NCBI GenBank assembly: GCA_964615805.1
Contig: CAZTQI010000001.1
Location: forward strand, 1-27,388
From: an uncultured Candidatus Saccharibacteria bacterium
Lineage (GTDB): Bacteria > Patescibacteriota > Minisyncoccia > Phycocordibacterales > CAIZIN01
DNA length: 27,388 bases
Direction of reading: 5' to 3'
Shown: positions 3,131-11,495 of the stretch, piece by piece
How the letters are laid out: every line of letters begins with the position of its first letter
How positions within the stretch are numbered: the first letter of the stretch is position 1
The notes under the pieces: model-generated
Databases searched by the model: none
What the model was told of the DNA's origin: nothing
What the model saw: only the letters and a program-made list of their open reading frames with translations
Translations under genes and position numbers: made by a program

Positions 3131-3214
3131 TTATCTCAACCCAGGATCATTCCACCTTCTTTCAAGTTCAGCCTTTGCCTCCTGTAGTGGTGTGTAAATA
3201 TCGTTTACGTTCAT
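3131..3214 (-). pseudogene. X 5' stub, copy B (27 aa, MNVNDIYTPLQEAKAELERRWNDPGLR*)
   Basis: Hand translation. First 21 codons encode the same peptide as X. Premature TAA, then weak in-frame similarity (G..IPHLLR vs G..LPLPLR) for about 18 more codons. Confidence 0.9.
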
Positions 3215-3296
3215 TTTAGTTTGTTGTTAGTTCAGGATTACTATTATCTTTCACACCTAATATTATAAACCATTTTCACATTAAAACAAAAATTAA

Positions 3297-3860
3297 TTAT
3301 AAAATATCTAAATTTTTCATTTTCTTTAATGCTCTTGCAACATTTGAATCCGTACCAGACATGACATCTTCAAAGCTAACCCACTTATAATCAGATACTT
3401 CATTCTCATCTAAAATAACATCACTTGAATCAACTTTATAAACAAACATAAAATCGTGATGACTATGTTCCGATTCGTTTTTTTTGATATTTTCAGGAAT
3501 TATATGTGTATCAACCAATATTGGACACTTATTATCCAAGCACCACTTATGCAATTCAATATTGGATATTCCTGTTTCCTCCAAAACTTCTCTACGGGCA
3601 GAATCCTCTAGATATATATCACCCACCTCAACGTGTCCACCAGGCTGTAAATACTTTTGTAATTTATTATGAAAAATAACCAGTATTTCATTGTTAGAGT
3701 TAATTATTAAAGCACTCGCTGTAACGTGACCATTGAAATTCGATCTAGATAAAAGATCTTGTTCTTCAGAAATCTGATTTTTTAACTTTTCAAACAAATG
3801 ATTCTCTTCATTAAAAATTTCAAGATAACTATTTAAATTTTTTATTATATCGTTCAGCAT
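3297..3860 (-). CDS. NUDIX hydrolase
   Basis: Nudix box QPGGHVEVGDIYLEDSARREVLEETG, plus HVTASA and HxHHDF. Start moved from 3896 to the ATG at 3860, 2 nt after the upstream stop at 3863. Confidence 0.9.
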   Translation of the reverse strand: MLNDIIKNLNSYLEIFNEENHLFEKLKNQISEEQDLLSRSNFNGHVTASALIINSNNEILVIFHNKLQKYLQPGGHVEVGDIYLEDSARREVLEETGISNIELHKWCLDNKCPILVDTHIIPENIKKNESEHSHHDFMFVYKVDSSDVILDENEVSDYKWVSFEDVMSGTDSNVARALKKMKNLDIL

Positions 3861-3862
3861 AT

Positions 3863-4999
3863 TTATATATTTATTAATAAAAAGTACTTCAACCAAAGAT
3901 CTGCTATTCTAATCCTATCTAATTCGGAAGTTTTCTGTACACTACTGTCGAGCGTATTTTCATTCATGTACACAATCGAATCTATTATCTCCTTCTGCAC
4001 CAACAAGATAAAATCATCTACCACTGCACCATGCAAAAAATTGACCGCATTTCCATCATTAATAACATAAACACTATGAGTATTTTTCTCATACCTAGTA
4101 ATATAATCATTTATAATAAGCTTGGAATAATTATCTTTTAGATATTTAAGGTCTAATTCATCGTCTGAGGATGTTACCGAAGCAATAAATACATTATTTT
4201 TTAACAGTTTGTATTCATCATCCTTGAGTGATAAATTTCCACTTGAACAGAAAATAACATCTGAAATTTCTAACAGTATATTTTTAGTTACAATTTTATT
4301 TCCTCTTGAATATGCATGAATCAGGGTTATTGGATTAATATCATAAACTGAAACATCACAGCCTTTATCTCTAAGTGATGAAAGTATACCATTACCAATT
4401 TTACCAAAACCAATTATTCCAACCTTTTTATTGTTTAATAGAATACCTAACTCTCTAAATAAAGCATCAACAGAGAAAACTACAGCTTGACCAACAAGGT
4501 GATCTTCGTTTTCTTTTAGAGGACTCCTGGCTACAGAAAGCACTGGATGATTTAATCCTTTATTTAGGTATTTTTGATGTCCGTTTTCAGTATCCTCAAT
4601 CACCCCTAAAAACCTTTCACCGAGAACTTCTTTTATTTTGCTAGAGATATTTGAAAAATATCCTCCTATATCAACAATAACTAAATTATTATCTTTCGGA
4701 ATGTTATTAATTATTGGTAAAATAACACTGATATCTTTTAGCTCTTCACGAGTAATATTTAATATTTTATTTTTTGGATATAATTCTAAAAAAATTTTAT
4801 TTATTGATTTTTTCTTTGGTATGATACATTCTATTGAAAAATATTTGTTGAGAATGTTTATATACGGAACTCCAGTATCTATAACATGACTGACTACAAT
4901 CAAACTAATTTTTTTAGTGTTTTTAGCTTCAGAAATAAAATTATCATCAAAAAACTTTTCCCTTGTTTTTATTTTTTCTTTAGTAAGATAATTTATCAT
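3863..4999 (-). CDS. Divergent S-adenosylhomocysteine-hydrolase-like NAD-binding protein
   Basis: Rossmann motif GIIGFGKIG, VYDINP; SAHH-like segments IVDIGG, IEDTENG, SVARSPLKENED, SGN and GNAVNF. Confidence 0.75.
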   Translation of the reverse strand: MINYLTKEKIKTREKFFDDNFISEAKNTKKISLIVVSHVIDTGVPYINILNKYFSIECIIPKKKSINKIFLELYPKNKILNITREELKDISVILPIINNIPKDNNLVIVDIGGYFSNISSKIKEVLGERFLGVIEDTENGHQKYLNKGLNHPVLSVARSPLKENEDHLVGQAVVFSVDALFRELGILLNNKKVGIIGFGKIGNGILSSLRDKGCDVSVYDINPITLIHAYSRGNKIVTKNILLEISDVIFCSSGNLSLKDDEYKLLKNNVFIASVTSSDDELDLKYLKDNYSKLIINDYITRYEKNTHSVYVINDGNAVNFLHGAVVDDFILLVQKEIIDSIVYMNENTLDSSVQKTSELDRIRIADLWLKYFLLINI

Positions 5000-5037
5000 T
5001 TTATTTTGAGGAATAAAAATTTGATCAGCACCTTTTT

Positions 5038-5145
5038 CTAATTAAAATACTCCTCCACCCCCCTCTTCAATTCCTTATCCTCCCACCTCCTCTCAAGCTC
5101 AGCCTTTGCCTCCTGTAATGGTGTATAAATGTCATTTACGTTCAT
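5038..5145 (-). pseudogene. X 5' stub, copy C (35 aa, MNVNDIYTPLQEAKAELERRWEDKELKRGVEEYFN*)
   Basis: Hand translation. Promoter homolog at 5173-5212. Stop lies 38 nt before the SAHH-like ATG. Confidence 0.9.
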
Positions 5146-9305: not shown

Positions 9306-9968
9306 TCAGGAATTCTGTTGTAATCGAGTTATGGGTAAACCGTGTTTTCGTAGGGGTTTATCCAATTGATACTCAGTATCATTTATTCGCGTGATAATCC
9401 TGTATTCACAGTTATTGAGATTTCCAAATGATTCGAAAAGTTCTTCATTCCAACCCATAATAATCATTAGCATGACTCGAAATTCAAAGCCGTGAGAAAA
9501 AACAACTATATCATTTCCTGTATTTTTTTGAAGCTCAAAAACTTTGCTGATAAAGGTTTTAAGTCTGCAGAGCATACTTTCAGAACTCTCGCCTGTTGGA
9601 AATGAATATCTTAAGACACCAATTTTGTAGCGATCAGCTTCAATTTGCGACCTGTTTTCTGAATTTATTTTGCCCCAATCCTGTTTTACAATTAACGGTT
9701 CAACCTCAACCTGAATATTTATATTATCCGACAATTTTTGTAAAACAAGTTTAAGTGTTTGCACATTTCTAACCCCTGGAGAGGTATAAAACTGTACGCA
9801 TTTACTTCCTTTTAGTAGCTGAGCTAGCATTGACGCAAAATCCTTAGCTTGTTGAACACCCTTTTGTGTAAGTGGAATATCGAGGTCGTTCAAAATGTCA
9901 TAAATACTGTTATCGACATCTTCTAATGATTCAGCGTGCCTACAGATGATAATTTTTGGTCTTTTCAT
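9306..9968 (-). CDS. Histidine phosphatase (phosphoglycerate-mutase-like) family protein
   Basis: N-terminal CRHAES, LTQKGVQQA, PTGES and C-terminal FSHG. Confidence 0.9.
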   Translation of the reverse strand: MKRPKIIICRHAESLEDVDNSIYDILNDLDIPLTQKGVQQAKDFASMLAQLLKGSKCVQFYTSPGVRNVQTLKLVLQKLSDNINIQVEVEPLIVKQDWGKINSENRSQIEADRYKIGVLRYSFPTGESSESMLCRLKTFISKVFELQKNTGNDIVVFSHGFEFRVMLMIIMGWNEELFESFGNLNNCEYRIITRINDTEYQLDKPLRKHGLPITRLQQNS

Positions 9969-10019
9969 TTTCTACCTTTCTACTTTGTTTTTGTTGAAAT
10001 TTACTGTAAAATTAAGTGA

Positions 10020-10580
10020 ATGAATAATTTAAATAATGAAGCAAAAATTTTAATGACACTTCAAGATAAGGATATTTTCTCTATACCCCTAAATACTAAT
10101 AATATAATCTGGAAGGATCGCCCAACTTGTAAAATAGTTTTGTTCAACAATGAAGGCAACATTGCTTTAATTGGTAATAAGGTGAATGATTATTATCTTT
10201 TACCTGGAGGCGGTATTGATGATTCAGAATCATTACACGACGCAGTTAAGCGTGAATGCAGAGAAGAAACTGGATGTGAGATAATAATCGAAGATGGTTT
10301 AGGTATAACGGAAGATTACCGTGCTCGTGATAGTAAACACTCTGTTACTTATGGATTTATCGCAAAAGTAACAACACAGCACGAACCAACACTGACTGAA
10401 AGTGAAATTGATATTGGAGCTTATGTTAGGTGGATTTCACTACAAGAAGCAATTAACATATTCTTAATTCAAGAAAAAAATGTTAAGGCAGGTGAAGTAA
10501 AATTTTACAATACCTGCTTTAACATTGTTCGTGACCTATTCTTTTTGCAACAAGCCAAGAAAATAAGAACTAGATCTTAG
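10020..10580 (+). CDS. NUDIX hydrolase
   Basis: LPGGGIDDSESLHDAVKRECREETG. Confidence 0.92.
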   Translation: MNNLNNEAKILMTLQDKDIFSIPLNTNNIIWKDRPTCKIVLFNNEGNIALIGNKVNDYYLLPGGGIDDSESLHDAVKRECREETGCEIIIEDGLGITEDYRARDSKHSVTYGFIAKVTTQHEPTLTESEIDIGAYVRWISLQEAINIFLIQEKNVKAGEVKFYNTCFNIVRDLFFLQQAKKIRTRS

Positions 10581-11055
10581 TCCTTATCCTATCAATAATA
10601 AGACTTGTTGATATTTTTTCATTCTCATATCGAGGCAGATAGTTAACTTTAGTACCAGGTGAGACTAATGCAATATTATCCAATCTCGTCTTCAACTTAG
10701 CTGAATCTGCAGTCTCCTCACCAAACACAACAGTATTTGGCTTTAAAATACTTAGCACATCAATACTGCTCGGACTAAGATCAGATATAAAAGCAAAATC
10801 AACAAATCTAATACTTGCAATCATTTTTAATCGTTGCTCTTGATTAATTATTGGGTGTAAAGAATTTTTATATTTTTTTATATAAGAATCTGAAAGCACA
10901 GCAACAACTAATAAATCACCGATTAAGGATGCCTGCTCGAGTAGGTGTAAGTGGCCAACGTGAATGAGATCAAAACAACCCCCTACCAGTGTAAAAGTCT
11001 TACTCGAAGGTATGGAATTCTTAATTAAAATCAAATCATTATTTAACGTATTCAT
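10570..11055 (-). CDS. Cytidylyltransferase-like (HxGH) nucleotidyltransferase, RfaE/TagD-like
   Basis: GGCFDLIHVGH, ASIRFVD and ISTS. Start moved from 11112 to the ATG at 11055 (MNTLNN), which has a -10-like TAAAAT just upstream. Confidence 0.85.
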   Translation of the reverse strand: MNTLNNDLILIKNSIPSSKTFTLVGGCFDLIHVGHLHLLEQASLIGDLLVVAVLSDSYIKKYKNSLHPIINQEQRLKMIASIRFVDFAFISDLSPSSIDVLSILKPNTVVFGEETADSAKLKTRLDNIALVSPGTKVNYLPRYENEKISTSLIIDRIRTKI

Positions 11056-11213
11056 AATTTTTAAGGTACATTTTACTATCCTTACTATACAAAAATACTT
11101 TAAAATTGTCAATAAAAGTGTCTATGTAGTTAAAATATTTATACCATTAACTAGAATAAATAAAAAACACGCTCTGAATACTGAGGAAAAATTGGGTCAG
11201 CGCCATTTTTAAA

Positions 11214-11315
11214 TCAAAAACCCATCCACTTTTTTCTCAATTCAGGATCATTCCACCTTCTCTCAAGCTCAGCTTTGGCTTCCTGTAATGGTGTATAAAT
11301 ATCGTTTACGTTCAT
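11214..11315 (-). pseudogene. X 5' stub, copy E (33 aa, MNVNDIYTPLQEAKAELERRWNDPELRKKWMGF*)
   Basis: Hand translation. An apparent 1-nt deletion in the A run after codon 27 shifts the frame. Promoter homolog at 11455-11495. Confidence 0.9.
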
Positions 11316-11495
11316 TGTTCTTGTCCCGTTAGAGTTTTATTTAATAATCTTATTATCTTGCAATACTTAAATTTTTCCAAACCACCCCGAAGCTCAATAG
11401 TGTACCTGTGCTAAAACTTTAACGGGATGAATATAAAATTATCTTTAGAAATCGTGTTTACATTATACAGCTTCAGCGAACTTAACACAAAATAA

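Follow-up and report, generated by a model that had tools for sequence, protein, structure and literature searches.

In the islands and prophages associated with dusA, cargo is inserted in the 5' end of the gene; the element supplies a new 5' end together with a promoter, which keeps the gene intact, and what remains of the original 5' end sits beyond the cargo, so that the gene start is present as a direct repeat (Farrugia et al. 2015, PMC4482086). These elements carry their own dedicated tyrosine integrase, and recombination takes place at a semi-conserved att core of 21 bp (PMC4482086). We analyzed a 27,388-nt stretch of DNA (hereafter the window), which is contig 1 (CAZTQI010000001.1) of the 688-kb, 75% complete genome GCA_964615805.1 of an uncultured Candidatus Saccharibacteria bacterium, and found that the start of one gene, here called X, occurs in it five times: twice at the head of a full-length gene (copies A and D) and three times as a truncated stub (B, C, and E). 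These five copies are the sole X matches in the whole genome. They are all co-oriented and, in the direction of transcription, form two arrays, E-D and C-B-A, each of which is terminated by a full X. The locus resembles the dusA islands in the order of stub, cargo, and full X, which is found in the window and in loci L031/L032, L068, L049, and L132 of other genomes, and in the promoter block that accompanies each copy. Unlike the dusA islands, the X locus has no linked integrase, its repeat is 130–170 bp long with scattered breakpoints, its cargo consists of just 1–3 genes, and several stubs are stacked.

Lopez-Perez et al. (2014, PMC4033161) describe replacement flexible genomic islands of aquatic bacteria, in which variable genes lie between conserved flanks and are exchanged by homologous recombination, and in which the island boundaries show raised, mostly synonymous substitutions. 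Among known systems, these and the dusA islands stand nearest to the X locus. Compared with the replacement islands, the X locus is similar in its conserved gene start with silent differences only and in the replacement of X bodies by distant xenologues; the flanks described there are whole single-copy core genes, whereas the X flank is a short gene-start module duplicated into an array, with truncated copies. The arrays also recall an integron, since small co-oriented cargo units alternate with a repeated element whose promoter could drive promoterless cargo. Unlike an integron, they have no adjacent IntI, their repeats are a coding gene start and not imperfect-palindrome attC sites, the majority of the cargo comes with its own promoter, and the intact gene stands at the downstream end of the array. 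In the orphan modules of polymorphic toxin loci (rhs/cdi) and the silent cassettes of pilS and hsdS, the fragments keep a stretch of the conserved part of the main gene, which permits homologous recombination; their variable ends differ, and swapping brings these into the gene that is expressed. The X stubs, unlike these fragments, carry the conserved start only, and the variable material is unrelated cargo. On the evidence given below, the stubs are probably recombination leftovers at the start of X, with a silent-only pattern for which inheritance and exchange, and not selection on the stubs, give the better account.

The five X starts differ only by silent substitutions

The full-length copies A (1082–1840) and D (8462–9220) are 252-aa open reading frames (ORFs) on the minus strand with 95% amino acid identity to each other. 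The three stubs lie on the same strand. Stub B (3131–3214) has 27 X codons followed by TAA, with degenerate X homology continuing to ~3083 (codon 44); stub C (5038–5145) has 35 codons followed by TAG; and stub E (11214–11315) is a 33-codon ORF ending in TGA, the protein of which equals that of X(D) through codon 28. The five ATGs are located at 1840, 3214, 5145, 9220, and 11315, and in 5/5 copies codons 1–21 translate to the identical 21-mer MNVNDIYTPLQEAKAELERRW. Within these codons, ten sites are variable (nine third positions and one CTA/TTA difference), requiring at least 11 changes, and 100% of these are synonymous, which confirms the original prediction that the copies differ only silently over this stretch. 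Random point mutations in codons 1–21 would be silent in just 19.6% of cases (31.7% for transitions), and the chance that 11 changes are all silent is p ~1.6e-8 (transitions only, 3.3e-6). For the nine changes in the stub lineages, all of them silent, the corresponding value is p ~4e-7 (transitions only, 3e-5). Compared with A and D over the 63 nt, the stubs show 2–7 silent changes and 0 replacements.

An assembly artefact was considered and rejected, since stub E and its unique flanks are covered, at 100% identity, by independent contigs that come from other samples. Logan contigs span stubs C and E. The peptide of stub C (P0124) was detected on 4 contigs, and that of stub E (P0123) on 6 contigs of other samples. 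A search of 5.8 billion proteins, restricted to 24–79 aa, found only four stub-like short ORFs, all of them from this lineage, indicating that there is no widespread family of such peptides.

Stub homology breaks off beyond codon 27

Behind the shared start, each stub is disrupted in its own way. Stub B has one replacement through codon 27 (E25G) and then a TAA at codon 28. In stub E, a 1-nt deletion after the K28-K29 run shifts the frame at ~codon 29. Stub C has the off-consensus residues G29 and N35 before its stop at codon 36, and its non-silent differences E22, K24, and K27 match another environmental allele (P0121/L132: WEDKELK). The identity between stubs and full copies is about 89–97% over codons 1–21 and falls to 55–69%, with indels, over codons 28–44, where the full copies are 71–84% identical to each other. 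The homology to the parent gene thus ends abruptly, the frame is disrupted, and constraint is relaxed in the unshared part, as in a scar or remnant. This step in identity past ~codon 27 means that a single age with uniform neutral decay cannot account for the stubs.

Over codons 1–21, stubs and full copies match at 53–61 of 63 nt, and full copies from different genomes match each other at 56–61 of 63 nt, so that the stubs are as close to the full copies as these are mutually. Together with the P0121/L132 allele matched by stub C, this supports the earlier suggestion of an origin of the stubs from several different intact alleles of X, which we refine and extend to a 5' module that would be repeatedly exchanged by recombination.

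The sequences that follow the stubs fall into two junction types. Junction J1 (3014–3102, minus strand) lies after stub B and contains a palindrome and the cargo promoter. The palindrome is perfect over 11 bp (ATAATTTGCAT-N6-ATGCAAATTAT, 3019–3046, minus strand), overlaps the -35 of the promoter of the DUF4143 ATPase gene, and looks like a candidate operator for a dimeric regulator. We found that J1 is 89% identical over ~85 nt, palindrome included, to the post-stub sequence of L031, which belongs to another species; it is thus shared between the window and L031 despite different cargo and saturated synonymous divergence (dS). In L031, the palindrome (~10165–10195) precedes a Fic gene. J1 was also considered as a repeated mobile element, which was rejected because it is unique in the genome. 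Junction J2, which follows stub C (to ~5005) and stub E, consists of frameshifted, divergent X-like sequence with an insertion, common to both. The stop at aligned codon 36 is common to stub C, the L031 stub, and, in its ancestral frame, stub E.

Evidence that the 5' module recombines apart from the X body

We compared 120 homologues with X(D), taking residues 1–27 and residues 28–252 separately. The results showed that several proteins with a distant body have a nearly identical start: the N-terminal and body identities are 100 and 41% for P0048, 96 and 41% for P0046, 96 and 40% for P0053, 93 and 41% for P0054, and 93 and 36% for P0078. The reverse was found in the clade with ~75% body identity to X(D), the N-terminal identity of which is only 56–70%. 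In the X gene of L133 (P0046), the promoter block and 105 nt of the 5' coding sequence are 84–90% identical to the window copies at the DNA level, and no DNA similarity to these copies was detectable beyond the 105 nt; the gene neighbourhood is X-SET-histidine kinase, as in its close relatives. A chimeric X is present in L132 (orf5). Its first 27 residues are 96% identical to the window X, and its body is ~50% identical to its nearest relatives, in a clade ~35% identical to the X(D) body. On the same contig, a ~80-codon stub with a stop at W59 is followed by DUF397 and MFS cargo and then by the chimeric X. In copies A and D of the window, which are otherwise ~86% identical, a tract of 300 nt reaches 98% identity, indicating that gene conversion is active between the copies. 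From these comparisons, the promoter with codons 1 to ~27–35 (~130–170 bp) appears to behave as a separate recombining module.

In one low-depth contig (run X12), a variant X 3' end (1092) is followed by 7 nt and then continues at position 3295, exactly where module B has its upstream edge. This joint hints at an X directly followed by stub B in another lake sample.

Stub-cargo-X arrangements in other genomes

About 100 loci with X homologues were scanned for stubs with an N-terminal profile, and the co-oriented stub-cargo-X order was found to recur in L031/L032, L068, and L049. In L031/L032, a 35-codon stub is followed by Fic and X, and the stub adjoins the same TPR gene as stub C. The L068 stub lies 5.4 kb upstream of X and has an R to TGA change inside the 21-mer; in L049, the distance from the stub to the downstream X is 0.7 kb, and decay is heavy, the 21-mer being broken by a stop and by W to Q and R to Q replacements. 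In L060, a near-full-length tandem X pseudogene is located upstream of the working copy. In L013–L016, where X is 93% identical, the order is GNAT-hairpin-X and there is no stub; relative to the window, this would be the "unoccupied" arrangement. An orphan 54-codon X 5' stub (..IYTPLSVAKEEIWRRWNDKDMGMDFCRV*) was found at 1477–1641 (minus strand) of L024 (G414:C17), followed by TTGACA-17-TATAAT and a membrane-protein gene. Across genomes, the stub ends vary from codon 23 to ~80.

Proposed exchange at the start of X

We propose that the X promoter and the first ~27–35 codons, the most conserved DNA of the locus, would serve as a handle for homologous recombination. Incoming DNA would carry cargo and its own 5' module and recombine at X; the incoming module would then head the intact X, and the resident module would be stranded as a stub on the upstream side of the cargo, joined to the junction sequence that the cargo brought in. 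The exchange may be of the Campbell type, of the gene-conversion type, or a homology-facilitated illegitimate recombination, and would most likely be driven by RecA, which is present in the genome. Repeated events would stack arrays of the form stub-cargo-stub-cargo-X, while the modules would alternate between stub and functional status or be converted from functional copies. A module that spends time at the head of a working X, for which the ratio of nonsynonymous to synonymous divergence (dN/dS) is ~0.04, would carry only silent variation in codons 1–27. The distal parts of the stubs (J1 and J2) would never rejoin a functional gene and so would decay. Stub promoters would be carried along passively, and may still drive promoterless cargo, as with stub C.

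Several observations weigh against this proposal. Every stub has private synonymous variants that are absent from A and D, so recent conversion from the resident full copies cannot explain all of the pattern. Stub C and the L031 stub occupy corresponding positions in their genomes, and although dS between these is saturated, each retains an intact ORF of 35 codons closed by the same TAG, which in-situ selection would predict likewise. The genome G414 is 100% complete and has no X gene, yet it holds an intact orphan stub, and a perfect TATAAT is kept in all stub promoters. In addition, no X-module joint, excised circle, or empty-site allele was seen in Logan contigs (4 DNA runs at low depth, where absence is not evidence); with no recombination intermediate seen, the mechanism and the direction of the exchange are what we infer from the copies. 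If modules are exchanged at the X start as proposed, the private silent variants and the likeness of C to the L031 stub would be due to a common ancestry of the junctions and to donor copies that are not today's A and D.

Promoter-like blocks and cargo expression

Each module has a promoter-like block on the minus strand: TTGTAC-17-TATAAT in A (1851–1879), TTGTAT-17-TATAAT in D (9231–9259, preceded by a hairpin and a T-run), TTGTGT-17-TATAAT in C (5177–5205) and in E (11462–11490), and TTGTTT-16-TATAAT in B (3262–3289). These hexamers and spacers are exactly those of the original prediction. The distances between promoter and ATG, given there as about 10, 30, 50, and 145 nt, were measured from the -10 as 10 nt in both A and D, 31 nt in C, 47 nt in B, and 146 nt in E. 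In A, B, and E, the block does nearly abut the stop codon of the upstream gene, with gaps from the -35 of 12, 7, and 5 nt. The idea of a homologous promoter in every copy held in part: a block is present in all five, but the homology of the B block to the other four is not clear. Likewise, the varying spacing is real but not specific to stubs, as full-length X genes in relatives have -10-to-ATG spacings of 10, 27, 37, and 85 nt. The leader of module E (11316–11461) contains a second, degenerate GATAAT block, resembling those in B and in the X of L032.

The -35 hexamers of the X modules match TTGACA at only 3/6 positions, and for this reason the X promoters were not listed by a generic sigma-70 scan of this AT-rich region (window ~30–40% GC), which found 63 promoters vs 52 +/- 7 in shuffles and thus no enrichment. 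We call them putative promoters from the conservation of the block, which forms repeat family D3 (including the A block) and recurs in relatives, and not from consensus strength; TTGTAT-17-TATAAT also precedes X in L013, L031, L132, and L133. In A, D, and the distant relatives L118 and L121, the -10 lies 6–10 nt from the ATG, from which X looks leaderless. B, C, and E no longer show this leaderless arrangement.

In array E-D, stub E is followed by a cytidylyltransferase gene, a NUDIX gene (plus strand), a histidine phosphatase gene, and X(D). In array C-B-A, stub C is followed by an AdoHcyase-like NAD-binding gene and a NUDIX gene, stub B by a DUF4143 AAA ATPase gene, and this by X(A). The cargo after stub E has its own predicted promoter, TTGACA-17-TATAGT (11/12; 11084–11112, minus strand), upstream of the cytidylyltransferase gene, and so has the cargo after stub B (TTTGCA-17-TATAAT, 3042–3014, minus strand), where it ends 6 nt before the cargo ATG. 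The cargo downstream of the G414 and L068 stubs also has its own TTGACA-type promoter. The AdoHcyase-like/NUDIX cargo of stub C (3297–4999) starts 38 nt past the stub TAG and has no promoter of its own; the module C promoter is the only evident one for it, and read-through from this predicted promoter is therefore plausible. Thus, the view that stub promoters express the cargo fits stub C and is disfavoured for B and E. No Shine-Dalgarno motif was found before any stub ATG and no GC-rich terminator after any stub, and the predicted fold of the RNA from stub B across its junction does not exceed shuffled sequences in stability (z = -0.69).

These data bear on the alternative that survives best, in which the stubs are kept by selection as a portable promoter with a translated short ORF (a leader, an upstream ORF, or a regulatory X peptide) that tunes the cargo, like an integron Pc. 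We regard it as unlikely. Formally, a set of substitutions that are all silent is what coding constraint leaves behind, but exchange with the functional X, which is directly supported, yields the same substitution pattern. The three stubs, the L031 stub, and G414 all retain the ATG and 27 or more X codons in frame, and C and the L031 stub both have 35 codons; on the other side, the peptide lengths and C-termini differ among the window stubs (27, 35, and 33 aa), the L068 and L049 stubs are broken inside the 21-mer by stops or heavy non-synonymous decay, and the four short ORFs found are confined to this lineage. The -10 is perfect in every copy, and the cargo of C, 38 nt after the stub stop, has no promoter of its own, whereas the cargo after stubs E and B and after the G414 and L068 stubs has one, the Shine-Dalgarno motif is missing, and the leaderless geometry is lost in the window stubs. 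The maintained promoter and leader-peptide unit of the original prediction is accordingly not needed, the evidence leans away from it, and it would be at most a side effect for one cassette. A further version, that the X start is an evolved, integrase-free cassette-capture device that recruits cargo by homologous recombination and supplies a promoter and possibly a 21–35-aa leader, with stubs selected across ultra-small species, also seems to us quite unlikely.

Protein X and its gene neighbourhood

Protein X has no sequence match in Pfam, NCBIfam, or PDB, the last of which was searched with the family profile. More than 400 homologues were found in metagenomes and 151 in species-representative genomes; the latter are mostly Patescibacteria, and the others are labelled Bdellovibrionales, Nitrospirae, and Proteobacteria. 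Conservation across the family (alignment A2) is highest in the N-terminal motif IYTPLEEAKxEIxRRWND, and the dN/dS of X is 0.04–0.06 vs relatives, with dS between the compared genomes being saturated. An AlphaFold (AF2) model of X from copy D (P0001; alignment A2, 46 sequences) was obtained with a predicted local distance difference test score (pLDDT) of 93.8. Its best structural matches are BshC (Z 7.9) and class I LysRS (Z 7.8), followed at Z 5–6 by other class I aminoacyl-tRNA synthetases, ATP sulfurylase, NMNAT, and cyclodipeptide synthases; Foldseek with the model gave no match at E <= 1e-3. This suggests that X is a HUP/Rossmann-like enzyme, the modest Z values speaking to the fold class only. 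The idea that X itself is a recombinase was rejected in view of the enzyme-type (HUP) fold of the model.

In L118, L120, L121, L133, L013, and the P0054 contig, DnaK/DnaJ genes and, further on, a 209-aa gene lie upstream of X, and genes for a SET-domain protein, a histidine-kinase-like HATPase, and TyrRS/TrpRS lie downstream. In relatives, variable genes are inserted on both sides of X, and a radical SAM gene is often next after it.

Search for a recombinase and the setting of the arrays

No recombinase, integrase, or transposase gene was found in the 27-kb window by Pfam scans of its ORFs or in the precomputed Pfam annotation of an equivalent 26-kb contig, and no integrase or transposase was found beside the arrays in related loci. 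No tRNA or tmRNA targets are present in the window, and an Rfam scan of positions 1–14800 (E <= 1) gave only a sub-threshold sroB match at 6841–6908, with the modules empty. The only PF00589 (tyrosine recombinase) match of the genome is on contig C21.

A second alternative takes the X 5' module as the attachment site of a site-specific system, like an integron or a dusA island, with the recombinase encoded elsewhere in the genome or of an unrecognised type. The cargo lies between directly repeated copies of the 5' end of X, just as it lies between attL and attR in dusA islands (PMC4482086), the stop at aligned codon 36 and the junction types are shared, and the one tyrosine recombinase gene lies on another contig. 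We nevertheless hold this alternative to be improbable: integrase and transposase genes are missing from the window and from the neighbourhood of related arrays, the modelled fold of X is that of an enzyme, and the homology extends over 130–170 bp with breakpoints scattered from codon 23 to ~80, with no short fixed core. That the stubs are neutral relics of tandem X duplication and deletion that look conserved through very young age, as the L060 pseudogene and the two full X copies of the window might suggest, is very improbable, because heavily decayed distal parts beside clean codons 1–27 misfit a single young age, because the stubs show several silent changes and no replacement against A and D, and because junction types are shared between genomes of saturated dS.

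On C21 (4514–6346, minus strand), the tyrosine-recombinase match is split inside one 748-aa open frame, with ~1.25 kb between the parts that match profile positions 2–136 and 126–172. A large insertion that keeps the frame, either intein-like or an additional domain, is suggested by this spacing.

Between the arrays, after X(D), lie a radical SAM/SPASM gene, a gene of no assigned function, and a TPR gene (plus strand). The nearest named homologues of the window genes are in metagenome bins of Patescibacteria/Candidate Phyla Radiation (CPR). A BRO-N domain protein, a domain typical of phage and mobile-element genes, is encoded at 22708–23571 (minus strand) between an ABC transporter ATPase gene and the gene for pyruvate phosphate dikinase. 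Contigs L036 and L037, from two other samples, join 14677 directly to 12140 and lack the 2.5-kb peptide/M16/GNAT segment between two ~41-bp hairpin repeats (12097–12141 and 14676–14716); in a Logan contig, the sequence jumps in a similar way from 12053 to 14681. The segment at 12140–14677 is thus a population-level presence/absence polymorphism bounded by hairpins.

Implications

X is a conserved accessory gene, by its modelled fold probably for an enzyme, at a gene-gain hotspot of a small lake-water bacterium that probably belongs to the CPR. It also represents a widespread, uncharacterised family of putative HUP fold with more than 400 members and no Pfam family, often found near SET-domain, histidine-kinase, and radical-SAM genes. 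For the reading of gene fragments, these stubs advise caution: a silent-only pattern is no proof of translation or selection if the fragment keeps exchanging with a functional copy. The ultra-small bacteria of the CPR have few recognisable mobile elements, yet their accessory genes turn over. The X locus suggests a simple route of gain, in which a short, constrained gene start acts as a common homology handle, and by way of this handle gene bodies may be replaced by distant xenologues and small cargo cassettes stacked, with promoter-bearing stubs left behind.

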